This document shows, piece by piece, positions 7,664-38,842 of a stretch of 41,426 nucleotides of DNA. How positions within the stretch are numbered: position 1 is the stretch's first letter; each line of letters starts with the position of its first letter. The position numbers and the translations under genes are program-made. Under the pieces are notes generated by a model. The model was not told the origin of the DNA. It did not search any database and worked only from the letters and a program-made list of their open reading frames with translations. The DNA is from a virus, in IMG/VR virus record IMGVR_UViG_3300028914_000024, positions 1 to 41,426 of that record; one strand, given 5' to 3'.

Positions 7664-8140
7664 CTATAAACTTGTTGTAGGTGCAAATGTTGGTACACCA
7701 TCCGCAATTGTTACTGTGCCTTCTATAGGGTCTCCATCGAAGTACAAATCATATGAAATTTCTTCACCTGAATATTCTGTAATAACTATTACTCCGTCAC
7801 TTTTCTTAGCTGGATATGTTCCTTGATTACCATTCCAAGTATCAACCTCAAGAATGTGTGTAACATAATTTAGTTTATCTCTACCAGCATTTATAAATTC
7901 AAAACAAGGTTCTCCTTTATAAGTTTTCTTAGTAATACTTGATTGTTTATCATTAGAAGTGTGGTCAGTTCTTGCACTATCTTCTACTATGTATTTGGTT
8001 CTTTCTACATTAGCATTAAAAGAAACTGATGCCTCCTCAACACCCCAACCTTCTAATTTCCAAGTAAATGTTGATGATGGAGTTGTGTCTAAAAACATTT
8101 GATATTGACTTCTTTTAATTCTTTCCAAGTTTTCAAACAT
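7664..8140 (-). CDS. Major tail protein
   Basis: 158 aa beta-rich protein, preceded by a short intergenic gap with an RBS. Canonical position upstream of the chaperones and TMP. Confidence 0.65.
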   Translation of the reverse strand: MFENLERIKRSQYQMFLDTTPSSTFTWKLEGWGVEEASVSFNANVERTKYIVEDSARTDHTSNDKQSSITKKTYKGEPCFEFINAGRDKLNYVTHILEVDTWNGNQGTYPAKKSDGVIVITEYSGEEISYDLYFDGDPIEGTVTIADGVPTFAPTTSL

Positions 8141-8321
8141 TGTTTTCCTCCTTTTCTAGTTCTCTTTTTATTAGAACTAAATCTTTATATTCAAGAGGTT
8201 CTATAAAGCCTAATTCATTTAGTTTAACTATTTGCTCAAAAGTCAAACCATTTATTTCATCACCAACAATATATTGTTTATTGTTAGCAGTAAAATCAAT
8301 TTTAGCAATAATCTTTTTCAT
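8133..8321 (-). CDS. Hypothetical small protein (head-tail region)
   Basis: 62-aa ORF translationally coupled on both sides. Confidence 0.55.
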   Translation of the reverse strand: MKKIIAKIDFTANNKQYIVGDEINGLTFEQIVKLNELGFIEPLEYKDLVLIKRELEKEENNV

Positions 8322-8764
8322 AGGCTCATTACCTCTCTTTCTTTATTATCTATATATGTAATTTGTATTTGTATATCAAATATTGCACTTGTTCCATTTG
8401 TAGTAAGCAATGTACCACAATTTAAACACTCAATACTTTCTATATTATCAATTTGAGGCAGTATGCCTTCGTCATTATTAGTTTTGATTATGTTTTCAAA
8501 TTCTTCAAAGAACCCAATATTGTTAAGATTGTTAATAGTGTCTTGTGAGTATGCTTTCCTACTTCTAAATGAATACACATCTTTTTTCTTGGTTATTCCT
8601 ATTATCCATTTTTCAGCCTCAGGATTAGTTGGTATTTTATCTAAGCTAAAATCATCAACTTTGTTTGATAGCATATCAGCATTTATTTGGTACAATCTAT
8701 TTGATGTAAGAGTATTTATAATACCAAATAGATAATCCCTTAATTTTGCTATTCTATAATCCAT
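8318..8764 (-). CDS. Head-tail connector / tail terminator-like protein (by synteny)
   Basis: 148 aa, coupled to neighbours between the capsid and tail genes. Confidence 0.5.
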   Translation of the reverse strand: MDYRIAKLRDYLFGIINTLTSNRLYQINADMLSNKVDDFSLDKIPTNPEAEKWIIGITKKKDVYSFRSRKAYSQDTINNLNNIGFFEEFENIIKTNNDEGILPQIDNIESIECLNCGTLLTTNGTSAIFDIQIQITYIDNKEREVMSL

Positions 8765-9925: not shown

Positions 9926-10846
9926 TTATAAACTTGGTGTGCTTTGTGGTTTAAGACTTGCAAATGGAAATCTTGCACTTGTTTCGTTTTCAGCATTTAC
10001 AGGGTTTGGAATTTCCCAACCTAATCTCATAACAACACGAAGTGCTACCATATCGTCTTGTGCTAAGTTGTAAAGAATTGAACCATCGCTTGGGTCTTGG
10101 ATAACTGCTTCAGTTAATACTTTATAAGTTATATCTTGTCTTATAGAGTAAACAGCTTGTGAGAAATCACCAACAATTAATGTTGATTTAGTCTTATCCC
10201 AAACTCCATTGTCCATAAATTCTCTACGAATTGAACCTATTTCAGTTGTATTTAATGGTTGACCAGTTGTATCAAGCATCATTCTAAATTTACCTTTAAG
10301 TCCTGTTCCGCCTAAGATACCATTTACATTGTATCCGCTTTCTTCAACTTTTACCATAACATCGTTAATGTCACTATATAATCCGTTGCTAGTTTCATTA
10401 ACTTCAGCACCTACTGTTGTGATACTAGGAACTAGTCCAGCTCTCCAATCAGTTGGTTTGTCAACACCAAAGAACATAGCATTGTCTATTTTCTTAGCAA
10501 ATGCTTCTTCAACTCTTGGTCTTACTGTTGCCCAAATATCTATTGAGCTATCATTTAATAAGTTTTCTTTAATTGGAACGATTACTGCTAATTCAGCAAT
10601 GTTGATATATTTCTTATCCCAAGCCAATTTTGTAATGTTTTTTCTACCATTATTTGATGTTTCATCAACGAAATAAGCAACTGGTAGACTGTCTAATACT
10701 CTTAATTTCGTTTTGTCTGATGTTGCATTTGGTAGTCTTTTAAACATACTTAATGCTTTAGATTGTCTAATTGTTCCTTCAAATATTTCGTTAGCAACTT
10801 GAGTTTCAATTAGAGCATCTACATCAGTTCTTGCAATTCCTGCCAT
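9926..10846 (-). CDS. Major capsid protein
   Basis: 306 aa, directly after the scaffold gene with a strong RBS. Size and position fit HK97-fold capsid proteins of Firmicute siphophages. Confidence 0.8.
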   Translation of the reverse strand: MAGIARTDVDALIETQVANEIFEGTIRQSKALSMFKRLPNATSDKTKLRVLDSLPVAYFVDETSNNGRKNITKLAWDKKYINIAELAVIVPIKENLLNDSSIDIWATVRPRVEEAFAKKIDNAMFFGVDKPTDWRAGLVPSITTVGAEVNETSNGLYSDINDVMVKVEESGYNVNGILGGTGLKGKFRMMLDTTGQPLNTTEIGSIRREFMDNGVWDKTKSTLIVGDFSQAVYSIRQDITYKVLTEAVIQDPSDGSILYNLAQDDMVALRVVMRLGWEIPNPVNAENETSARFPFASLKPQSTPSL

Positions 10847-10866: not shown

Positions 10867-11349
10867 TTAATTGTTTACTGCACCACGAAGTATATCGTTC
10901 ATTATGTCGTTTGTACTTTGTGGTTTGTTTTCACCTGTATTTAAACTAGGTGATGATTGCACTTTTTTTACAACAGTATCTCCAAAATATTGTGGATTTT
11001 CTTTTTTGTAATTTGCAAGTGCGGTTACAAAGTCGGTGTCATCATTTACTTTTGACATAACTTCATTCTTAACAAATTTAGAAAACTCAGATTTTACTTT
11101 GCTACCACTCATTTGAATTTCAGCTTTTAAATCTTTATTTTCGTTTGTTAAGTTTTGTAAGTTTTCTAAAGACTTATTGCCATCCTCAATCTTACCATTC
11201 AAATCTTTAACTTGAGTTTCATAGTCGGCTACTTTGGTTTTGTATTCCTCTATTTGTTCTCTTAACCCTGTCACATTTTTGCCATATTCCGCCATAATGG
11301 TATCAATTGTTTCTTTGTCTAATTCCAAGCCTTTTAGAAATTCTCTCAT
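10867..11349 (-). CDS. Scaffolding protein (GP20-like)
   Basis: Coiled-coil 160-aa protein (LREQIEEYKTKVADYETQVKDLNGKIEDGNKSLENLQNL...) immediately upstream of the capsid gene. Confidence 0.8.
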   Translation of the reverse strand: MREFLKGLELDKETIDTIMAEYGKNVTGLREQIEEYKTKVADYETQVKDLNGKIEDGNKSLENLQNLTNENKDLKAEIQMSGSKVKSEFSKFVKNEVMSKVNDDTDFVTALANYKKENPQYFGDTVVKKVQSSPSLNTGENKPQSTNDIMNDILRGAVNN

Positions 11350-14733: not shown

Positions 14734-14807
14734 TGGCACAGGTTAGTGGATTTGAACCACTATCAATAGTTTTGGAGACTATTATGCTACCATTACACCA
14801 AACCCAT
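14734..14807 (-). tRNA. trnW: tRNA-Trp (anticodon CCA), CCA end encoded
   Basis: Hand-folded cloverleaf. Acceptor ATGGGTT/AACCTGT has two G-U pairs. D-loop AATGGTA, anticodon arm ATAGT-CTCCAAA-ACTAT, T arm AGTGG-TTCAAAT-CCACT. A1-U72 and G73 match bacterial Trp identity. Confidence 0.9.
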
Positions 14808-14817
14808 ATAAGCAAGA

Positions 14818-15999
14818 TTATTTCTTGCTTTTTTTCTTTTTAGTAACTTTGTTTAATTCTTCAGCAATTACTTTAACATCTTCTAGTTCTAGTTTGATTG
14901 GTTTTACCTCTTCAAGAATTTCAACCGCATTGTGTTCCTTTAAGTATTCAGCTCTTTCTTTTTCACATTCCCATTCACTTTTGTTTGCTACTCTTAGTTC
15001 TTTCCCCTCTACATCTTGAAAGTTAATTAATGCTCTTACTCTTACCATTTTTTCTTCTTCCTCCTTATAGTCTTTAATTATTTTTTCTTTATCTATCTTA
15101 CCAGTATAATCTAAAAACTTTAACCAATCTTCTAAAGAATGATTATCATACTCTTTGCATATTGGTATTGTTAATATCTTTTTTATATCAAAGTTCATAT
15201 CTAATGGTACAACATAACCATTTACACCATCTTTAATAAGTTCAGTACAACCACCTACATCTGTTACTATACAAGGCACTTTATACTGTAAGCTCTCTTG
15301 AACTGTGTAGGGCAAACCTTCACTATCACTAAGTAAAACAGTGTAATCGGCATCTGCTAAGTAATCCCATATGTCATATCTTTGTTTCCAAAAATGTACC
15401 TCTTCATAATCACATTTATACATCGTTGAATTTGTAAATATATTCCATTCAAATTTTATTCTTGCTTTCTTCATCATATCCATAAGTTTTAAGCATCTAT
15501 TCCAACCTTTGGCTGGGTCTAATCTAGTACAGCTAATTAGATGCAATACTTTATTTGTTTCCCTTTTTGGCAGTAATATATTTTTAATTGTTGTTGGATG
15601 GTCGTGCAATACCTCATCACTCATTTTACTAACAAATTCACCACAACCAACAATTTCTTTTATTCCCATATCGGCATATTGTTGATATAATAAGCCTTTA
15701 TCTAACAAATATTTATAATTAGCGTGTCGCATCTCTATCATTCTTTTAGCTTTTATATTTTTAGGTATTGTACCCCATACACTATTGCGGATGAAAATAT
15801 CACATTCATAAGTTTTGCCTTCTTCATACTTTTCCATCTTTGCAAGTTTAGACATTTTTCTAAGCCTTATATCGTCACCACCGCAATACAATATTGTTAT
15901 ATCAAAAAAATTTCTTAACCACCAACACCAATTATATGCCATTGTTTCCACTCCACCAATTTGGCAAAAATGTGATTGATAAAATATTATTTTTTTCAT
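14818..15999 (-). CDS. Glycosyltransferase, GT-B fold (GT4/group-1-like) with a C-terminal extension of about 85 aa
   Basis: Motif SDSEGLPYTVQESLQYKVPCIVTDVGGCTELIKDGVNGYVV is typical of group-1 GTs. Start overlaps the upstream stop (ATGA). Confidence 0.8.
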   Translation of the reverse strand: MKKIIFYQSHFCQIGGVETMAYNWCWWLRNFFDITILYCGGDDIRLRKMSKLAKMEKYEEGKTYECDIFIRNSVWGTIPKNIKAKRMIEMRHANYKYLLDKGLLYQQYADMGIKEIVGCGEFVSKMSDEVLHDHPTTIKNILLPKRETNKVLHLISCTRLDPAKGWNRCLKLMDMMKKARIKFEWNIFTNSTMYKCDYEEVHFWKQRYDIWDYLADADYTVLLSDSEGLPYTVQESLQYKVPCIVTDVGGCTELIKDGVNGYVVPLDMNFDIKKILTIPICKEYDNHSLEDWLKFLDYTGKIDKEKIIKDYKEEEEKMVRVRALINFQDVEGKELRVANKSEWECEKERAEYLKEHNAVEILEEVKPIKLELEDVKVIAEELNKVTKKKKSKK

Positions 16000-16610
16000 T
16001 GATTAGCACCCCAACTTCCAAACATAAGGTGTCGTGTATATACTTCATCATCAATTTCTTCACTATAGCATAAAGTCTTTCTAGGATAAATAGCCATATT
16101 GTCTTTTTCTTGATATTCCGCTCTATCTCTATCAAAATATTTGCCTATTATATCACTCATTATCATTGTGTTAGTTTCATACTCGTGCCAATTTTCGTGT
16201 GTTTGAAAAGTCTTATTATTATAAACATCTAACATTTCTTTTATTAATTCATTGTTCTTACAAGCACCCATTGTTGCAGTTACAGGATAGTGTTGTTGTT
16301 CAAACCCTGTAAAAAAGCTATGCTTTAAGAACTTGTCTAAAGCCCCATACACTATAACATCAGTATCCATATAAATTCCGCCATAATTATATAAAGCCCA
16401 TAATCTTGCAACGTCAGACACATATGCCCATTTCTTATTATCATAAGCATCTTTTACATATTGATTATAATTAATATTAAAATTATTTTCATTTATTTCA
16501 ATGTATTCCCAATCTGGCATATACTCTTTCCAAGTCTTAATGCAGTTTAATATAGGTTCTGGCTTGTCTTTGCCACCAAACCAGCAATATATAATTCTTT
16601 TAGGTATCAA
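15996..16610 (-). CDS. Glycosyltransferase with DXD motif (GT32 / Gly_transf_sug-like)
   Basis: IPKRIIYCWFGG ... YVSDVARLWALYNYGGIYMDTDV signature. Likely TTG start at 16610 after AGGTGAT (the ORF track extends to 16619). Confidence 0.8.
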   Translation of the reverse strand: MIPKRIIYCWFGGKDKPEPILNCIKTWKEYMPDWEYIEINENNFNINYNQYVKDAYDNKKWAYVSDVARLWALYNYGGIYMDTDVIVYGALDKFLKHSFFTGFEQQHYPVTATMGACKNNELIKEMLDVYNNKTFQTHENWHEYETNTMIMSDIIGKYFDRDRAEYQEKDNMAIYPRKTLCYSEEIDDEVYTRHLMFGSWGANQ

Positions 16611-16635
16611 TTTTATCACCTAATATAATTATATC

Positions 16636-16666
16636 AAAAAAGGAAAAAGAGTGCAAATACACTCTT
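16636..16666 (-). terminator. Intrinsic terminator
   Basis: Minus strand AAGAGUG-UAUUUG-CACUCUU followed by a U-rich tract. Confidence 0.55.
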
Positions 16667-17376: not shown

Positions 17377-17733
17377 TTATTTAACAAGCCAGACATCCTC
17401 AATTTCTCTTTCACGAGGGTCAAATGTGTCATAAACCACTCCATATTTTGAGCATAAAATATGAGATGGCACAGTTATTAATAATATGTTGTTTGGAAAC
17501 ATACCCGCTACCTGTCCAACTGTACCATAGACCCCATATAACCTTTTATATGTTCTATCTAAATAATTTCTTACAAATTCTCTTTTATCAAATAAAGTAC
17601 CTTCGTATTGTGCTATATCGCTCAAATAGTCATAAACATAATCCCAAGATTTATTTGTTGCACAACTTATTGCTCTTATAACACAATCATCTTCATATTT
17701 ATTTAATGGATTTCTATTATAGAACCTGTACAT
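17377..17733 (-). CDS. Putative papain-like Cys/His protein (function unknown)
   Basis: N-terminal DCVIRAISCA and distal SHILCSKYGVVYDTFD resemble a Cys...His dyad arrangement. Inference only. Confidence 0.35.
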   Translation of the reverse strand: MYRFYNRNPLNKYEDDCVIRAISCATNKSWDYVYDYLSDIAQYEGTLFDKREFVRNYLDRTYKRLYGVYGTVGQVAGMFPNNILLITVPSHILCSKYGVVYDTFDPREREIEDVWLVK

Positions 17734-18209
17734 TATCTCATACTTCTTTGTAATGTTTCATTTAACATTTGATGTTGTTGTGGTGTTTCAGCTTCTTCGT
17801 GTAACACTTGAATAAAATCTTCAAGAGCTTTTACCATATAGTGAAATGATTTATCAGTTTCTTCACCCGCACCATATCTATTTCGGCTTTCCATATATCT
17901 ACCATATTCCCCTGACATTCTATCTAAACTATCATCTCCACGATATTTCATATCTCTACCTCTGCGTCCATAGTTGCCATATTCTCCATAGTTTTCTCCA
18001 TAACTACCACGTCCATATTCTCCATAACTATCATATCCTGGTCTTCTAGCACCATAATTACCATAATTCATATTTTCATCCTCCTTTTCCATATGTTTTA
18101 TTTTTGCTAATTTATAAACAATATCTAAATTGTTTGTTGTTAGTCCATCTTTTATAGTTCTTTCTATCGTTTCTTCCGTTAGTCTTAATAAGTTTGACTT
18201 TTCTTCCAA
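17733..18209 (-). CDS. Gly/Tyr/Arg-rich low-complexity protein
   Basis: NYGNYGARRPGYDSYGEYGRGSYGENYGEYGNYGRRGRD core. Probable TTG start at 18209 after AAGGGAG (the ORF track extends to 18272). Confidence 0.6.
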   Translation of the reverse strand: MEEKSNLLRLTEETIERTIKDGLTTNNLDIVYKLAKIKHMEKEDENMNYGNYGARRPGYDSYGEYGRGSYGENYGEYGNYGRRGRDMKYRGDDSLDRMSGEYGRYMESRNRYGAGEETDKSFHYMVKALEDFIQVLHEEAETPQQHQMLNETLQRSMR

Positions 18210-18210
18210 T

Positions 18211-18393
18211 TTAATCACTCCCTTCTTTAAGGATTTGTAATATTTCTTCTTGATTTTTAATAATCTTTTCAAAATATTGTGTATCTTGTTTTTGCAATTC
18301 TTTCATTAAGTCAGTATTGTTATAATCTTGTAATAATAAAATAACACTGTATAATTGTAAAATTAATGATGTTATATCTATATTATTTCTCAT
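18211..18393 (-). CDS. Hypothetical protein
   Basis: 60-aa ORF, coupled to the upstream gene (ATGA overlap at 18393). Confidence 0.5.
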   Translation of the reverse strand: MRNNIDITSLILQLYSVILLLQDYNNTDLMKELQKQDTQYFEKIIKNQEEILQILKEGSD

Positions 18394-18854
18394 TAAATCC
18401 TACTTATGCTAAATGTGGCATTAGTTATAATTGCTTGTGTAGTTGCTATTGGTGTTGTTGGGTCAGTTGGGGTTGGTACACTTGATACACTTTGAACTGA
18501 TATATTAGTTGTTCCTCTAGGACAGACCCTTAACTTTTTATCAAATGAAATAGTTTCGTAATCATCCGCTGTCGCAATAGTAACTGCACGAATTGTGTCA
18601 GGTATTAACACTCCATCTTGATACAAACCTATTGCCACTACACCAGCAGTTGCTGAAGAAACTGATGCACTAAATTCTACATCATAATAGCCTGTGTATC
18701 CATTACCAAATATTTTAAAGTTGGGGTTACCACTTGAGTAATCTAGCCATCCATTACAAGTAGCACATCTTGTTCTTATATCAGTTTCATCAAAAGTTAT
18801 TGGACTTGCATTACTTGGCAATACCAATGGTTCATTTATAATTGTTTCTATCAT
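18393..18854 (-). CDS. TNF/C1q-like jelly-roll protein (BclA C-terminal / ExsF-like pattern)
   Basis: Alternating beta pattern GYYDVEFSASVSS...VAIGLYQDGVLIPDT...NISVQ...ITNATFSISRI resembles exosporium BclA-C/BxpB-type domains. Inference. Confidence 0.4.
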   Translation of the reverse strand: MIETIINEPLVLPSNASPITFDETDIRTRCATCNGWLDYSSGNPNFKIFGNGYTGYYDVEFSASVSSATAGVVAIGLYQDGVLIPDTIRAVTIATADDYETISFDKKLRVCPRGTTNISVQSVSSVPTPTDPTTPIATTQAIITNATFSISRI

Positions 18855-18976
18855 TCTATCTTTCTCCTCTCATAATAAATAAAGAGATAGAACTATGCCT
18901 ATCTCTCGTTTCCCCTATAAAGGGTTTTTGTTAGCAAGTTCTCGTCTTCGAGTATGTAGTATTCTACTCTATGCTA

Positions 18977-19798
18977 TTAAATAAATTGACTTGTAGTGTT
19001 CATTCCACAACCGCATCCACCATTGCAAGTGAAGATAGGTATTCTTCCATAGACTGGTGTGCTTGGAACTGGGCAATTAGAAAGTCTGTTATACAATGCA
19101 TCTACTTCAGCCTCTTGACCCGCTCTTAATTGTGCAGTCTGTTGAATTTGACTAGCCTGTAAATCTTTCATTAAGATTTCTCTTTGTAAATCACCAATTT
19201 TTTCATTTTTTGCATCAATCTTGTCTTGGCATAATTGGTCTAATATTCTTTGAGTTGATGCAGTTTGGCTTGAAATAATATCTCTAATTCCATTGCTTAA
19301 AGCCTCTCTATCAGCACAATTTTCGCTTATTACTGTTGATGTTAGATTAGCTAATCCTAATCTATTTTCACAACAACAATTTAAAAATGATGTATTTAAA
19401 CCATAAAAACCATCTTTAATGCTGTCATTTAATGTGTATGTTGAATTACATAATTGGCTTGATAAAGAATTTATGCCATTTGTAACATCTTGAATATCAT
19501 TGCTTAATTGTAAAGCATTAAAACCTGCATTTGTGTTTTGCATAATTTCTTTTTGCCCATTAGATAACCAAGCATAATCATTATTAAAGCCATTATTGAA
19601 GAAACCACCATTTCCATTGTTTCCCCAACCACCAAATAGTGCAAACAATAAAATTATCCAAATCCAATCACCACCATAACCAAAACCACTATTACCATAT
19701 CCTCCCATCATTGGCATAACTGGGTATGGATAAGCAAAACCATTGTTGCCATTTGTGGTTGCTAATTCTACTGTTGGTTGTATTCCGTTTCCGTTCAT
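18977..19798 (-). CDS. Membrane-anchored Gly/Asn-rich, coiled-coil, Cys-rich protein
   Basis: G/N/Y-rich N-terminus, one TM helix (WIWIILLFALFGGW), a coiled-coil, and Cys clusters (NCCCENR, CNGGCGCG). ATG at 19798 follows AAAGGAGGTGA. Confidence 0.65.
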   Translation of the reverse strand: MNGNGIQPTVELATTNGNNGFAYPYPVMPMMGGYGNSGFGYGGDWIWIILLFALFGGWGNNGNGGFFNNGFNNDYAWLSNGQKEIMQNTNAGFNALQLSNDIQDVTNGINSLSSQLCNSTYTLNDSIKDGFYGLNTSFLNCCCENRLGLANLTSTVISENCADREALSNGIRDIISSQTASTQRILDQLCQDKIDAKNEKIGDLQREILMKDLQASQIQQTAQLRAGQEAEVDALYNRLSNCPVPSTPVYGRIPIFTCNGGCGCGMNTTSQFI

Positions 19799-19830
19799 TA
19801 TCTCACCTCCTTTCATCCTCTATATCAACT

Positions 19831-20076
19831 CTATTTTGAGTTAATATTATTATTAAACATTTGCATCATTTGTTGCCATTGTTGTTTTTGTTGTGGGTTA
19901 AAATTGTTTATAGTTTCATTTAATAAGTCATTAGGGTTATTATTTTTTCTAGCATCTTGATATTTTTTATATGCTTGAGGATTTGTTCTTTTTAGCTGTT
20001 GTTCTAATTGTGTCATCATTTGTTGTGGTATTTGTTGCATCTTGTTTTGCATCAGCATTTGTAACATCTGCATCAT
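19831..20076 (-). CDS. Gln/Met/Asn-rich small protein
   Basis: 81-aa ORF with an AAAGGAA RBS. Overlaps the 3' end of 19967..20464 by 110 nt in the +1 frame. Confidence 0.5.
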   Translation of the reverse strand: MMQMLQMLMQNKMQQIPQQMMTQLEQQLKRTNPQAYKKYQDARKNNNPNDLLNETINNFNPQQKQQWQQMMQMFNNNINSK

Positions 20077-20464
20077 TTTTTATCATTCCTTTCAGTTCTT
20101 CAATTTGCGATTGTAAGTATTGTATTTGTAAATCTTTGCTATCAAGTGGCACTATTTCTTTTAATTCATAAGTTTTAATAGTGCCTTTAGTATTTTTAAT
20201 CCATAATACTGACATATCTTTACTAAAGAATGGGGTATCACCATATATTATTTCTTTGCTAACATCATCAATGGTGTTTGCATATCTCATTGTGTTTGTT
20301 CCGTTTGGTGCAAGTTGGAATGTTTGATTAATAGCGGGTTGTTGATTATTTTTAAATTGTTCTTTCATTTGATTTAGTTGTGCTATTTGATTGTCAATTC
20401 TATCATTTATGCTTTGTTGATTAAAATTTGAATTATAAGTATTCATATATGGATTGTTATACAT
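19967..20464 (-). CDS. Asn/Gln-rich protein with a globular central domain
   Basis: 165-aa ORF with AGGAGGT RBS. The N-terminal 60 aa are N/Q-rich. Confidence 0.65.
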   Translation of the reverse strand: MYNNPYMNTYNSNFNQQSINDRIDNQIAQLNQMKEQFKNNQQPAINQTFQLAPNGTNTMRYANTIDDVSKEIIYGDTPFFSKDMSVLWIKNTKGTIKTYELKEIVPLDSKDLQIQYLQSQIEELKGMIKNDADVTNADAKQDATNTTTNDDTIRTTAKKNKSSSI

Positions 20465-25347: not shown

Positions 25348-25971
25348 CTATACATCTTGGCCTTTTGTAAAATCATTTCCCTCACTTGTATAAAATACGT
25401 TATTTACTATATCATACATTCCTACTTTATTATCACTTTTTCTATAACAAGGTATAAAATCTCTAATAAGCACATCATTGTTATCATAAATTTTACAAGA
25501 ATACATATTACCATTGAAAGCCTCTCCTGAACTCATACCATTTGTTGATAAAAGATAGCATCTATAATTATTTAATGAATAAGTATATGTTCCTTGTCCA
25601 TATAAAGTGCCATTTACTTTTATATAGTTATCACCAGACGTTGTACTTGCTTCTATTTTATATCTTGTATTTGTTTGAATATAAAGACCTGTCCATATAT
25701 CTTCTTTTGCACCTAAGCCGAATTGAAAACCTCCATTATCAAAACAAGCAAGATGTGAACGTGTAATAGGATAACTGAAATCAACTGCACCTATTATATA
25801 TTGTGTTGATAATTCATTAAATGATATATCTAATTCAAACTTATACCCATCTGTTATATCAAACCCTGTATTAATATAACCATATCTTACACCAGTTATA
25901 TATTCAACCTCTTGATATTCACTAGGCAATCTTGAACTTAGTGTACTTAAAAGGCTTCTAAATAAACTCAT
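25348..25971 (-). CDS. Fibre-tip / lectin-like protein (ConA-like fold suspected)
   Basis: LPSEYQEVEYI start and C-terminal IRDFIPCYRKSDNKVGMYDIVNNVFYTSEGNDF recur in gut phage fibre proteins. Inference. Confidence 0.5.
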   Translation of the reverse strand: MSLFRSLLSTLSSRLPSEYQEVEYITGVRYGYINTGFDITDGYKFELDISFNELSTQYIIGAVDFSYPITRSHLACFDNGGFQFGLGAKEDIWTGLYIQTNTRYKIEASTTSGDNYIKVNGTLYGQGTYTYSLNNYRCYLLSTNGMSSGEAFNGNMYSCKIYDNNDVLIRDFIPCYRKSDNKVGMYDIVNNVFYTSEGNDFTKGQDV

Positions 25972-25982
25972 ATTTCACCTTC

Positions 25983-26441
25983 TTAATATTTTTTCCATAT
26001 TGCAATATCATTTAATATTGAAATCATATAGTTTTTACTTGCAACACACGTTCCTGTACTTACCCCACCACTTGTTGTTAATGTTGGTGCATCACCTAAA
26101 TTAGTCAATGAACTAGGTATACTTACACTTGTTGCAGTTGAACCACTTTCAAAATAAATCATACTTTCTATATCAAATGTTGTTGTTGCAGTTATTGTTA
26201 ATGATGTTATTTCACCTAATTTATATGACTTGTTTCCTGTTAAACTAGCTATTGTATATGTTGAACTGCTATTTGTAATAACCTCAGGGCTATCCCCATC
26301 ATAAACTTGTGCCGTTGTTGTTCCATTCTTGTCAGTAATTGTTATCGTTGACACGTTGCTATTTTTAGTAACAGTTGCAGTTGGGCTATACCCCGCACTA
26401 CCCAAGCCACTTATTATTGTATTACCTTTTCTTAAACTCAT
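25983..26441 (-). CDS. Small fibre-like protein sharing the ITITDKNGTTTA module
   Basis: SPTATVTKNSNVSTITITDKNGTTTAQVYDG parallels two segments of 27257..28756. Confidence 0.55.
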   Translation of the reverse strand: MSLRKGNTIISGLGSAGYSPTATVTKNSNVSTITITDKNGTTTAQVYDGDSPEVITNSSSTYTIASLTGNKSYKLGEITSLTITATTTFDIESMIYFESGSTATSVSIPSSLTNLGDAPTLTTSGGVSTGTCVASKNYMISILNDIAIWKKY

Positions 26442-26450
26442 AATATCCTC

Positions 26451-27263
26451 CTAATTAAAATATTTTGCTAAGTCAACATTATAATTGTATGCCACTTCGT
26501 CAGCCGACAAATCTCTATTATATATTAAAAAGTTATGTATTGTTCCGTTAAATGTTCTATCACTTGGTGCATATTCTGGTGGATTTGCTTGTAAATAAGC
26601 ATTCCCAATTGTAAAATACATACTACTATTTAAACTACCGCTGAATGTATTTCTGTCATATACTTGTTGACCATCTATATATAAAATCATTCTTGATGTT
26701 GACATTATAACTAAAGTTAAATTATGTTGTGAGTTATCACTAGCCCAATCGGAGGTTGATATTGTTCTGCCTGAGCCACCTAACCAACCCGCACTTGAAC
26801 TTGAACCCTCGTATTGTACTAAGAAACCCGCACTGCCAATTCCGTGATTACCAAACAAGCCCATATAATTACCACCTGTTTTTACTGTGTATGTGCAACT
26901 TATCGTAACAGGCATATCGCTAAATAAATCGGTCATTTTTTTATCATTAACTGTTACGACACCATTATACGAATAATATAGTCTAAATTTTAGCCCGTTA
27001 GTTGTCCAACCTGAGTTATCACCAGTGCCATTAGAAAAGTTATACATTTTACCAACATTGTTATTTCCACTTAAGTCAGCCCACTCTGTTGCGGATGTAC
27101 TATAACCATTTCCTGTATTATCTATTCCACTATAATAAACTATTAATCCATCAGTAATATAATCATTGCCCTTTGGTTGCCATAATGTAACACCATTTCT
27201 TTCTATTTTTTTAACTGTTCCCTCAGGTATTGTAATACTTTTCACGTTAGAAAAATCTACCAT
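26451..27263 (-). CDS. LamG / concanavalin-A-like lectin domain protein
   Basis: FNGTIHNFLIYNRDLSADEVAYNY is the classic Laminin_G_3 C-terminal signature. Confidence 0.75.
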   Translation of the reverse strand: MVDFSNVKSITIPEGTVKKIERNGVTLWQPKGNDYITDGLIVYYSGIDNTGNGYSTSATEWADLSGNNNVGKMYNFSNGTGDNSGWTTNGLKFRLYYSYNGVVTVNDKKMTDLFSDMPVTISCTYTVKTGGNYMGLFGNHGIGSAGFLVQYEGSSSSAGWLGGSGRTISTSDWASDNSQHNLTLVIMSTSRMILYIDGQQVYDRNTFSGSLNSSMYFTIGNAYLQANPPEYAPSDRTFNGTIHNFLIYNRDLSADEVAYNYNVDLAKYFN

Positions 27264-28756
27264 AATACAACTTCCTTATCAACAGTAGTGTCATCATCCA
27301 ACGTAAATGTCCAAGTTTCGTGTGAAAAACTATGTTGACTTACCCATTCTGTGTCAAAATCACTATTACTAGCTTTTGCTAACACTTGACCCGTTGTTCC
27401 TGCACTTGGCAATCCATTGTTGCTATAATCATCAGTTATATTATAGAAAGTATCGGCATCCTTATTTTGTATTGCATTGTATTCGCTTAGTGTACCACTC
27501 CAAAACTTGTCTAAATTTGTTGTTTTTACATCTTTAACGCCAGTCATAAATTGAGTTTTGTTATACTCTATTTTTTGAAATGTTGTTACGCCTGTTGATG
27601 TAAATACATTGTTTTCCCACGTTCCATTTATTCTAAATGTAACTAAATATAGCGTATTACCATTAAAACTATATCCATCAAAAAGATACATTCTATCTTG
27701 ATTTGTTAATGGACTTTCATTACTCATAATAAATGTGTAATTGTAATTTGTTTTTAATAATACAATAGCATTTTTTATTTGTTTACCATAATAATAGTTT
27801 ATTAAATCAGTTGCACTTTCTTTTATTGCGTCTGTGGTATAATTTTCGTTATTATATGAAAATGTTGTTGGTATTTCAAATCTATATACTTGGTGTTGGT
27901 CTGTATCTACATATTGTTTTGTTGCATAATTACTTAAATCACCACCAACTGCACTTATAACATTATTTTCTATTGTTATGTTTTCTCCTGCTGTATATTG
28001 AACGTAACCATCTCTACCATCAGTTCCGTTAGTACCATTGATACCATCACTAACAATTGCGGTTGTGGTTCCGTTTTTATCGGTGATAGTTATTGTTGAT
28101 GTACTGCCACTTTTAGTTACTGTTGCAATTGGGCTTACCCCATCAACTCCGTCAATACCATTTCTTCCGTCAACTCCGTCCTTCCCGTCAACTCCATCTC
28201 TTCCGTCTCTTCCGTTTGTTCCATTCGTTCCATCTAAAACTTGTACCTCTTTTGATGTTCCACTTTTGTCCGTAATTGTAATAGTCGTTGTTGTTCCAAC
28301 TTTATTTGCATCTATATCTAAATTATTGACCTCATTTAAAGCTGTATCTATGTCATCTAATTTGCCATTAACCTCGTTTAAACCTTCTTGTAATTGCAAT
28401 TCGTATTGTTCTAATTCGCTTGGTGTTATTGGTTGACTATTTTCGGCATCTTTTAATGAACCTTCTAGTGTTGTAAAGTAACCAGGTTTAGGGTTGTATC
28501 TTTGAGTTGAATTAAATGCAACTACACCTAATTCAATTTCACCAGGTTCGGTTAATACTTCACTAGGTATTTCACATTGATTATTTATTATGATTTGTTT
28601 GTATGTGTCTCCTTTTAAAGTAAAATATGCCTCTTTTGTAAATGTTGCATCAAAGTCATCACTAAATTCAAAATCAACAGTTGTTACATTTATTTCTTGC
28701 TCATTTACTGGTGTATTAATTACTTGTATTGTATGCGGTTTAACTATTACTTTCAT
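27257..28756 (-). CDS. BppU-like fibre protein with collagen-like Gly-X-Y repeats
   Basis: N-terminal Ig-like BppU-type region, GTNGTNGRDGRDGVDGKDGVDGRNGIDGVDGVS collagen run, and a second GINGTNGTDGRDG run. Confidence 0.75.
   Translation of the reverse strand: MKVIVKPHTIQVINTPVNEQEINVTTVDFEFSDDFDATFTKEAYFTLKGDTYKQIIINNQCEIPSEVLTEPGEIELGVVAFNSTQRYNPKPGYFTTLEGSLKDAENSQPITPSELEQYELQLQEGLNEVNGKLDDIDTALNEVNNLDIDANKVGTTTTITITDKSGTSKEVQVLDGTNGTNGRDGRDGVDGKDGVDGRNGIDGVDGVSPIATVTKSGSTSTITITDKNGTTTAIVSDGINGTNGTDGRDGYVQYTAGENITIENNVISAVGGDLSNYATKQYVDTDQHQVYRFEIPTTFSYNNENYTTDAIKESATDLINYYYGKQIKNAIVLLKTNYNYTFIMSNESPLTNQDRMYLFDGYSFNGNTLYLVTFRINGTWENNVFTSTGVTTFQKIEYNKTQFMTGVKDVKTTNLDKFWSGTLSEYNAIQNKDADTFYNITDDYSNNGLPSAGTTGQVLAKASNSDFDTEWVSQHSFSHETWTFTLDDDTTVDKEVVLW
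28133..28231 (-). repeat. Collagen-like Gly-X-Y run (11 triplets) within 27257..28756
   Basis: gga-nnn-nnn periodicity read on the minus strand. It generates the mirror-image Pro/Ser-rich plus-strand ORF 28038..28436. Confidence 0.9.
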
Positions 28757-37654: not shown

Positions 37655-38842
37655 TTAATCTACCTCCTCAATGTCAAATATAGAAAATTGTTTTTGTTTT
37701 TGACCGCTTTTTTTATTAAAGCTAATCCCATCCAATTTATGTTTCATACTACAACCATCACACATAAAATGATTGTAACGCCCACAATAACTGTCAACAT
37801 AATCTTTAAACTTAGTCACTTTTTTAATTCTTAAATCACCATTGACACAATTAGCTACATTAGTTTGTGGCAACCAAATCTTTTCATCATCCGCTATTTT
37901 TTTATTGCCTAAATGCTCGGTTGTAAAATATGTTAAATTGTATTTTAAATAATTATCAAAGTTTTCGTTTATTGTATCAACACCACAACAACACCTTGAT
38001 TGGCTTAAATAATGTAAGTCATTATCACCAACACCAACTAAAGTTTTATCTAAATGCTTTTTTAATATTTCAATGTTTCTCGTTTTTGTTTGTACATCTA
38101 ATTCTAAGTTCCGCATAATTGATGTTCTTTTATATTTGTAAATTTCATCTTTAAATAATTCTTTTATTGTTGGATTGTCGGTATTGATTTTCAAATGTTC
38201 AATTGTAACATAACTGGCAATGCCATTTATTGTATCACACAACTCTATAGCTTTGTCAAGGTCTATTACAGGCTGTATTCTTATGCTACACCAAAAACCT
38301 TTTGACCTTAATTCTTTTAAAAAGTTTATTCTTTGAGTTGCGGTTGGGCTATTATCCTCGTACTTTTTTACCCACTCATCATCTTTACCAATTAAACTTA
38401 TTTGGAAACAATGAATGCTAGGGTCTAATATTTCCCAATATTCATTAGGCAAATAACATTGCTTAGTTGAAAATATCAATGGATAATTATACTTGTTGCT
38501 TAACTCAATTAATTTGTAATTTAATTTCAGTTTAAATTCTATAGGCTGAAAAGGGTCGGCTAACCCACCACAATGTATAGGTACTCTATGTCTTAATAAT
38601 TCAATAACAATGTTTGATGTTTTCTCGTTTGTTTCAAATGCCTTATAAAATAAATCTTTAATAATTTCAAATCGTGCATATGAATATTCAAAATCTTCTT
38701 GACCACCTATATGCCTTGCAAAACAATATTTACATCCAAAACTACAAAACTTATAAAAGTCTAGTCTAAATGGGTTACCACAAAATCTAAATTGACTGCT
38801 TAAAGCTAATGGGCTTTTATAATCGTCTTTAAGTTCTTTCAC
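37655..38842 (-). CDS. Radical SAM enzyme (SplB / COG1533 DNA-repair-photolyase-like architecture)
   Basis: CxxxCxxC at residues 33-40 (CSFGCKYC, nt 38723..38746), followed by FARH. Downstream GGLADPFQP and TIM-barrel-like periodicity. Extra C-terminal Cys clusters (CCCG, CDGC). Confidence 0.75.
   Translation of the reverse strand: MKELKDDYKSPLALSSQFRFCGNPFRLDFYKFCSFGCKYCFARHIGGQEDFEYSYARFEIIKDLFYKAFETNEKTSNIVIELLRHRVPIHCGGLADPFQPIEFKLKLNYKLIELSNKYNYPLIFSTKQCYLPNEYWEILDPSIHCFQISLIGKDDEWVKKYEDNSPTATQRINFLKELRSKGFWCSIRIQPVIDLDKAIELCDTINGIASYVTIEHLKINTDNPTIKELFKDEIYKYKRTSIMRNLELDVQTKTRNIEILKKHLDKTLVGVGDNDLHYLSQSRCCCGVDTINENFDNYLKYNLTYFTTEHLGNKKIADDEKIWLPQTNVANCVNGDLRIKKVTKFKDYVDSYCGRYNHFMCDGCSMKHKLDGISFNKKSGQKQKQFSIFDIEEVD

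Follow-up and report, generated by a model that had tools for sequence, protein, structure and literature searches.

The stretch of DNA analysed here, hereafter the window, is the complete 41,426-bp genome of a phage recorded in IMG/VR as IMGVR_UViG_3300028914_000024, with direct terminal repeats, a G+C content of ~30% and all its genes on the minus strand. Its head-morphogenesis operon contains a pair of adjacent glycosyltransferase (GT) genes (14818..16619) that, by sequence comparison with relatives, is one allele of a hypervariable enzyme island. The enzymes encoded by this island probably O-glycosylate short C-terminal tags carried by phage proteins, a virion glycosylation that is here proposed on the basis of the catalytic motifs of the enzymes, the architecture of the island and its co-occurrence with the tag.

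The glycosyltransferase pair, its C-terminal module and the island

The first gene of the pair (15996..16619, minus strand) encodes a GT32-like glycosyltransferase of the DXD type, which comprises 207 aa when read from the GTG at 16619, the TTG at 16610, behind an AGGTGA ribosome-binding site, being the probable start. The protein scores above the cut-off of PF04488 (60.5 bits versus 23; 2.6e-16), also matches PF05704 (1.1e-11), and contains the DXD motif intact as D85-T-D87, all in agreement with its assignment as GT32-like (Gly_transf_sug, DXD). It lacks a transmembrane segment, and homologues with 45-80% identity are present in part of the related islands. Its nearest solved structures by sequence are the GT domains of protein-glycosylating bacterial toxins and YeGT, with weak matches of 20-25 bits that cover ~40 residues round the DXD motif.

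The second gene (14818..15999, minus strand) overlaps the first at an ATGA (15996..15999) and encodes a GT4-like protein of 393 aa that matches Glycos_transf_1 PF00534 (3.8e-16; 59.5 bits versus a cut-off of 26.4) and PF13692 (5.8e-14). Its catalytic part (15055..15999, minus strand), a retaining-type GT-B enzyme, is identified by PF00534, by the E-x7-E motif and by an AlphaFold2 (AF2) model compared with Foldseek. This model (pLDDT 78.5) displays the generic GT-B/GT4 fold, with two predicted Rossmann-like domains and the E-x7-E motif (E227..E235) in the C-terminal one, both glutamates being invariant in 21 homologues. The nearest Foldseek neighbours are BshA, PglA, WbnH, TarM and SdgB, the GT4 top matches having E-values of 1e-10 to 1e-6. 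GT family names rest here on Pfam; no NCBIfam equivalog cut-off was reached by the island enzymes, which show weak, sub-cut-off similarities to EpsE, TuaC/TuaG, TviE, lipopolysaccharide (LPS) galactosyltransferases and SdgA. The public gene call for the GT4 protein starts at Met20 and comprises 374 aa; the 393-aa form is favoured here because homologues keep residues 2-19 and because the two open reading frames (ORFs) overlap at the ATGA.

Both genes form a unit of their own. An intrinsic terminator with an 8-bp stem (three G-C pairs), a 4-nt loop and a T-run (16647..16666, minus strand) closes the unit that lies upstream of the pair; it is the minus-strand one of two terminator-like sites found in the 2.8-kb region scanned, for which shuffled sequences predict 0.6. 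A promoter-like site, by consensus match only, precedes the pair at 16628..16657 on the same strand (TTTGCA-18-TATAAT, extended -10 TG, 10/12 matches), and a tRNA-Trp(CCA) detected by ARAGORN (14734..14807, minus strand) closes the unit at its other end. These features substantiate an earlier note on this DNA, which described a translationally coupled GT32-like and GT4-like pair bounded by a terminator and the tRNA. When the unit was compared by megablast with GenBank phages, the tRNA alone was matched.

The earlier note also mentioned a C-terminal extension of about 85 aa in the GT4-like enzyme. Such an extension is indeed present (residues ~301-393, strongly K/E-rich and ending in KKKKSKK), but it contains a separate portable module, from here on MOD, rather than being a plain continuation of the catalytic domain. 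MOD (14818..15054, minus strand; residues ~316-393) consists of a beta-rich domain of ~50-65 aa (residues ~316-366), an acidic/Lys linker and the Lys-rich tail KKKKSKK. The AF2 model of its core reaches a pLDDT of ~95, and Foldseek detected no match to this fold in the PDB (best E 0.24). Searches of PHROGs gave a best E of 0.011 and those of Pfam no match, and weak matches in BFVD correspond to an uncharacterised Bacillus phage Wes44 protein, a phage GT1 protein, DUF7210, DUF7443 and DUF2635. A profile search recovered MOD in 458 clusters among 1.84 billion representatives, mostly as a free-standing protein and always at the C-terminus when fused.

Homologues of the GT4 with 67-83% identity were found in 21 viral contigs, in the equivalent position immediately before the scaffold and capsid genes. 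With the tail-completion gene and three capsid types as anchors, ~290 further loci were gathered, and homologues of the GT4 allele by itself number 459. The slot that holds the pair extends from the homologue of w17377, or from the minor-head gene, to the scaffold and capsid genes, and its enzyme content differs among relatives, where several kinds of GT2, GT4, GT8, GT32, DUF4422, a GT4-GT2 fusion and MobA/IspD-like nucleotidyltransferases appear in many combinations. An island is generally made up of one large enzyme (a GT4 or a 340-370-aa GT2), often accompanied by one to three smaller ones. No transmembrane segment was found in the island proteins, and the islands contain no flippase, polymerase or priming transferase. 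Every related island closes with MOD, either fused to a GT4, GT8, GT2 or nucleotidyltransferase or as a free-standing protein of 67-130 aa, and MOD stands alongside GTs in 75 of 76 loci. Because it is the only universal component of the island, and because of these Rosetta-stone fusions, MOD is the best candidate for bringing interchangeable enzymes to the tagged proteins or the particle.

A NUMOD4/HNH homing-type endonuclease gene lies between the GT32-like and GT4 genes of one relative (L018:9437-9970), and several islands are flanked by similar small helix-turn-helix or HNH ORFs ('unk192'), an arrangement suggesting that mobile endonucleases help to shuffle the island content.

The C-terminal tag of the virion proteins

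The major capsid protein of the window (9926..10846, minus strand; phrog_10, 1.6e-42) ends ...SLKPQSTPSL, its last eight residues, KPQSTPSL (nt 9929..9952), being the predicted acceptor tag. The tail-completion (Tc1-type) protein (8318..8764, minus strand; phrog_3266, 4.3e-22) carries the added tail ...DNKEREVMSL (nt 8321..8350). The presumed major tail (tube) protein (7664..8140, minus strand), recognised by synteny only, ends ...VPTFAPTTSL; it belongs to phrog_3099, a family of no assigned function, and no match to it was found in the PDB or with the FP_Lugh tail protein. Among the 36 proteins of the window, only these three end in -SL. The capsid and tail-tube endings read exactly as the earlier note had quoted them, but its description of both as Ser/Thr/Pro-rich tails does not hold, the common feature being a defined tag with an invariant penultimate serine.

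The capsid protein of island-bearing phages always ends in Ser-[LIFYMV]-COOH, usually as G-x-x-x-S-L. This tag is shared by four capsid types with no BLASTP connection between them (...FASLKPEGTxSL, ...DLIIYNGxxxSL, ...VVAKFxxxxVSL and ...VQVKTTGxxS[LY]), and the serine at position -2 is invariant in the 117 distinct capsid tails that these types comprise. Codons were counted at the window sites (9929..9934, 8321..8326 and 7667..7672) and at the homologous ends in the related loci L002-L314. The penultimate serine is AGY-encoded in 117 of 121 capsid, 52 of 59 tail-completion and 105 of 112 tail-tube genes, the AGY share of the other serine codons in tag-bearing genes being 39% for the capsid and 39-54% across the three proteins. 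The last codon of the tag and the stop codon vary while the serine codon class stays, within a near-constant ending AGT TTA TAA. Such an AGY lock is expected if the serine never passes via a non-serine intermediate; alternatively, it may reflect a common stretch of DNA that recombination has spread.

The position of the tag can be judged from outgroup capsids of the window type. That of FP_Lugh ends ...FAFLTAAAVAA, and those of a C. difficile phage and of phage Fontainebleau continue, at exactly this point, into an Ig-like domain of ~100 aa. The capsid end is very likely surface exposed, because outgroup capsids place this Ig-like domain at the same exit point. Regarding the tail-completion protein, hhalign relates it to FP_Lugh Tc1 with 96.5% probability, in an alignment that stops before the tail; the tail is a true addition past the last conserved strand, formed by a variable linker and a conserved final S-L.

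Capsid ends in which the last residue is Tyr or Phe, not Leu, occur in L004, L006, L018, L082, L085, L215 and L251. They were observed only with GT4-type islands, in 6 of 33 versus 0 of 48 with GT2-only islands (Fisher 0.003, a hint with kinship ignored). Separately, an additional ORF of ~55 aa (MKFKQLNTGAILETNNEFVI...; L074:8690-8873) comes after the capsid gene where a capsid of the DLIIY type is tail-less; it is also found at the same position in L031, L033, L095, L102, L034, L105, L119 and L134 and is absent where the capsid is tagged.

Association of tag and island, and alternative explanations

A simple expectation, that relatives without the window-type GT4 should lack tails, apparently failed at an early stage; it seemed to do so because those relatives hold other GT families in the same slot. 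When the island was scored as such, in-locus only, in 157 unique evaluable loci, island and capsid tail were both present in 76 and both absent in 75, six loci showed the tail without the island, and none showed the island without the tail. For the tail-completion protein (111 loci), 41 loci have island and tail, 31 the island only, one the tail only and 38 neither, and the corresponding values for the presumed tail tube (88 loci) are 59, 4, 13 and 12. The pairing of GTs with C-terminal virion tails put forward in the earlier note is, therefore, retained for the capsid and tail-completion proteins and dropped for the tail tube, for which 13 of 25 relatives without GTs keep -SL.

The six capsid exceptions, with tail and no in-locus island, include three complete genomes, all of which have GTs elsewhere: a GT2b-GT2c-DUF4422-MOD block that has moved together with the neighbouring cassette in L070, GT2a plus MOD in L261, and GT4 in L266. 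The remaining three, L069, L199 and L265 (a near-copy of L266), are fragments. Conversely, neither PF00535 nor PF00534 was detected in eight tail-less records, six with a CheckV completeness of at least 95% and the others with 87% and 69%. Independent contrasts were then taken from trees built on capsid cores only, with the tails removed. The concordant pairs numbered 3/3, 4/4 and 2/2, one further pair of the second set, involving a 4.6-kb fragment, being a tie; all nine contrasts agree (p = 0.004 in a two-sided sign test). In these trees, tail-less and island-less capsids nest within tailed, island-bearing clades at 90-97% core identity. Two island-less loci are degenerate intermediates: L102 keeps only a 70-aa MOD and its capsid is tail-less, and L197 keeps only MOD and its capsid tail is devoid of serine (...AEDPGL).

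Since the island lies just 1-4 kb from the capsid gene, the link between both might simply be hitch-hiking within a single head-module recombination block, the S-L end then serving capsid assembly or translation termination. Such an origin would fit with tail-less capsid genes also differing downstream, where the extra small ORF is found, with the near-constant AGT TTA TAA ending, readable as a shared DNA segment spread by recombination, and with the tail-tube -SL being found without GTs. On the contrary, the tag is kept in genomes whose island has moved far off, cores of 90-97% identity come with different states of both traits, on both sides of the core, the tail-completion tag follows the same rule ~2 kb further downstream, and the last and stop codons vary while the serine stays. 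Hitch-hiking is consequently regarded as very unlikely.

The joint displacement observed in L070 draws attention to the cassette that neighbours the island. In the window, this exosporium-like cassette (17377..20464) encodes a BxpB/BclA-type TNF-like protein, a Cys-rich membrane-anchored protein, Gly/Tyr-rich proteins and a small Cys-His-Asp enzyme. The acceptors might be proteins of this cassette, or those of the collagen-like, S/T-rich head-fibre genes (25348..28756), in a parallel to BclA on spores, and the capsid tag would be the docking site for the resulting glycoprotein. The collagen regions of BclA-type proteins are heavily O-glycosylated in Bacillus, and the window presents a short collagen run together with S/T-rich fibre proteins; moreover, in most relatives the cassette immediately precedes the island, with which it travelled as one block in the genome of L070 (L157/L158). 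Nonetheless, the island occurs without the cassette in L183, L190, L196, L198, L201, L202, L204, L215, L248, L254 and L257, the cassette occurs without any island in the L074 clade, and relatives do not conserve the collagen and fibre genes. The cassette as an obligatory partner was accordingly rejected, each element occurring alone, and acceptors of this kind are considered quite unlikely.

The nature of the enzymes themselves raises another alternative, raised as well in the earlier note, namely that they glycosylate a polymer of the host envelope (wall teichoic acid, cell-wall polysaccharide or an S-layer precursor) at the cytoplasmic face. By masking the receptor, this would prevent progeny from being lost on debris or would exclude competitors, and the variability of the island would track host glycans. 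GT4, GT2 and GT8 enzymes together with IspD/TarI-like cytidylyltransferases typify pathways for teichoic acids and polysaccharides, and the weak NCBIfam similarities to EpsE, TuaC/TuaG, TviE and LPS galactosyltransferases, as well as the presence of TarM among the Foldseek neighbours of GT4, point in the same direction. In addition, soluble TarM/TarS/TarP-type enzymes work without a flippase, and the polybasic tail of MOD could bind an anionic membrane. This explanation does not, however, predict the strict co-occurrence with the capsid tag or that with the tail-completion tag; the genes are situated in the late head operon and not in a moron or lysogenic-conversion position, and the window, with its direct terminal repeats, contains no detected integrase or lysogeny module. 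Action on the host envelope is, on balance, unlikely.

That last observation comes from PHROG and Pfam scans of the window proteins, which also established the overall gene content. They identified the small and large terminase subunits, an ADP-ribosyltransferase-type cargo gene, the portal, fibre-like genes, a MuF-like minor head protein, an accessory stretch of ~12.7 kb, the scaffold, major capsid protein, head-tail adaptors, the Tc1-type tail-completion protein and the presumed tail tube, followed by chaperones, the tape measure, distal tail genes, an endolysin and a DnaD/Erf/RusA replication module. The scaffolding protein gene (10867..11349, minus strand) has weak PHROG matches and is assigned by its position immediately before the capsid gene and by its conservation among relatives. 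The fibre-like genes at 25983..28756 are S/T-rich, as the earlier note had stated. The replication module also contains a radical-SAM protein of 395 aa (37655..38842; PF04055 1.3e-5, under the cut-off) with no apparent link to the GTs.

These scans bear on a further possibility, also listed in the earlier note, that the enzymes glycosylate modified bases of the phage DNA and so evade restriction. Phage GTs acting on 5-hydroxymethyl pyrimidines are well known (T4; bioRxiv 10.1101/2023.12.21.572611), and the Lys-rich tail of MOD could bind DNA. Against this, no dCMP/dUMP hydroxymethylase, C5-methyltransferase, TET/JBP-like dioxygenase or other base-modification gene was detected by PHROG and Pfam among the window proteins scanned, several small ORFs being unassigned; the island lies in the head operon instead of the replication module, and the association with the capsid tag would be left unexplained. 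Glycosylation of DNA is, thus, judged extremely unlikely.

The proposed system and its relation to known ones

The phage belongs to a large family of rumen and gut Firmicute siphophages. The nearest cultured relatives of its capsid all grow on gut Clostridia, and comprise Acutalibacter phage Fontainebleau (51%), Faecalibacterium phage FP_Lugh and a C. difficile phage; in addition, a Clostridia metagenome-assembled genome is the labelled source of one GT4 homologue. In the virion glycosylation that we favour for this family, soluble, cytoplasmic island enzymes would act late in infection and use host nucleotide sugars. Their acceptor would be a short, surface-exposed tag of the approximate form G-x-x-x-Ser-[Leu/Ile/Tyr/Phe]-COOH, to be O-glycosylated on the major capsid protein and also, in the window phage and many other members, on the tail-completion protein. 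In the window phage, addition of the first sugar probably falls to GT4 and its extension to the DXD enzyme, and the other enzyme sets found in other family members would produce other glycans. MOD, the sole universal part, most likely serves to dock the enzymes, singly or as a complex, onto tagged proteins or onto the particle during assembly. The glycan might serve to shield the particle from proteases, antibodies or defence sensors, or might act in adhesion.

The closest functional parallel is found in mycobacteriophages. Freeman et al. (2023, Cell Host Microbe 31:1216) reportedly described glycans on the C-terminal ends of the Che8 capsid and tail-tube proteins. To our knowledge, virion glycosylation has been demonstrated only in actinobacteriophages, and we know of no counterpart in the actinophage system of a universal C-terminal module such as MOD. 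The Che8 record shows capsid and tail-tube endings of ...NKTGS and ...YSDGS, respectively, and three GT genes, gp108-110. Both systems share phage-encoded soluble GTs, major virion subunits with a short C-terminal serine tag, the co-occurrence of tag and enzymes across relatives, and several enzymes per phage, which implies oligosaccharides. They differ in host and habitat, the hosts here being Firmicutes of the Clostridia type in rumen and gut and not Actinobacteria, and in the tag, which is Ser-Leu-COOH with a penultimate serine here and Gly-Ser-COOH in Che8. The acceptors here are predicted to be the capsid and tail-completion proteins, the tail tube being unsupported, and the island is hypervariable in content and lies within the head operon, whereas the Che8 genes lie at the genome end. 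Concerning the enzymes, gp108 of Che8 is a GT2 plus methyltransferase, gp109 is GT2-like and gp110 a GT25, and when these three were compared by BLASTP with the GT4 and GT32 of the window, no match fell below E = 1; only the small GT2c and GT2d of sister islands match gp108, at 6e-9, a weak similarity, and 2e-4, respectively. With no homology between its enzymes and those of Che8, the present system is an analogue and not a member of that family. The mycobacteriophage-like system anticipated by the earlier note is, in this sense, upheld in its working logic, with GTs whose motifs are intact and a capsid tag linked to them, and departs from the actinophage type in lacking homology to gp108-110 and an enzyme-linked tail-tube tag. 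The mycobacteriophage system, with Che8, Corndog and Myrna, is cited here via papers that refer to it (PMC11256854, PMC13313380, PMC12582341), and among the citing papers examined none reports virion glycosylation in Firmicute phages.

A second parallel is the O-glycosylation of Firmicute adhesins (GtfA/B, Gtf3, GlyD/E; SdgA/SdgB), in which a soluble GT4 starts on serine and GT8 or GT2 enzymes extend the glycan in the cytoplasm, before export or assembly. SdgB is among the fold neighbours of the window GT4, and SdgA among the weak NCBIfam matches. The acceptors of those systems are long repeats, unlike the single C-terminal tag considered here, and no GtfB-like chaperone is found in this system; the island enzymes are not members of the SdgA-type family, because the NCBIfam score is 31.5 versus a cut-off of 800 bits. 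Similarly, the prophage-encoded wall teichoic acid GTs (TarP) and the serotype-converting Gtr systems (GtrABC) are phage-borne GTs whose content varies among related phages. In temperate phages they occupy lysogeny or moron positions, and the membrane proteins GtrA/GtrB are required by Gtr, whereas here the genes are in the late head operon, and neither an integrase in the window nor a membrane protein in the island was found.

Several considerations weigh against virion glycosylation as proposed. The phage is known from an uncultured metagenomic genome alone, its enzymes reach no NCBIfam equivalog, and those of the window lack detectable homology to the Che8 ones. Two unrelated folds (GT-B for GT4 and GT-A for GT2) would both need to start on the same tag unless MOD supplies the recognition; MOD itself is at times fused to a nucleotidyltransferase and not to a glycosyltransferase, and its Lys-rich tail could equally bind membrane or nucleic acid. 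As for the association, some co-inheritance by linkage is expected at a distance of 1-4 kb from the capsid gene, nine contrasts are a modest number and come from mosaic genomes, three island-less loci (L102 and L197 among them) keep a MOD remnant, and the tail-tube -SL is not linked to the enzymes.

A more specific form of virion glycosylation can tentatively be put forward as a possibility, namely a tag-directed system in which MOD would read x-Ser-hydrophobic-COOH and recruit interchangeable GT sets. Similar particles would then carry different 'glycan serotypes', as a viral counterpart of O-antigen diversity, driven by the pressure that rumen and gut exert on the virion surface through proteases, antibodies, capsid-sensing defence and adhesion to mucus or fibre. 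The combination of a minimal C-terminal tag, soluble enzymes and a small adaptor-like domain would, if virion glycosylation as proposed is correct, also be an attractive and readily testable tool for site-specific protein glycosylation in bacteria.

The island varies like a bacterial surface-polysaccharide locus, in a family that comprises hundreds of contigs. If virion glycosylation as proposed is correct, phages of an abundant rumen and gut family coat their own particles with sugars, which would bear on the reading of many 'auxiliary' glycosyltransferases annotated in viromes, on the evolution of phage surfaces, and on the escape of capsids from host defence sensors or animal immunity.

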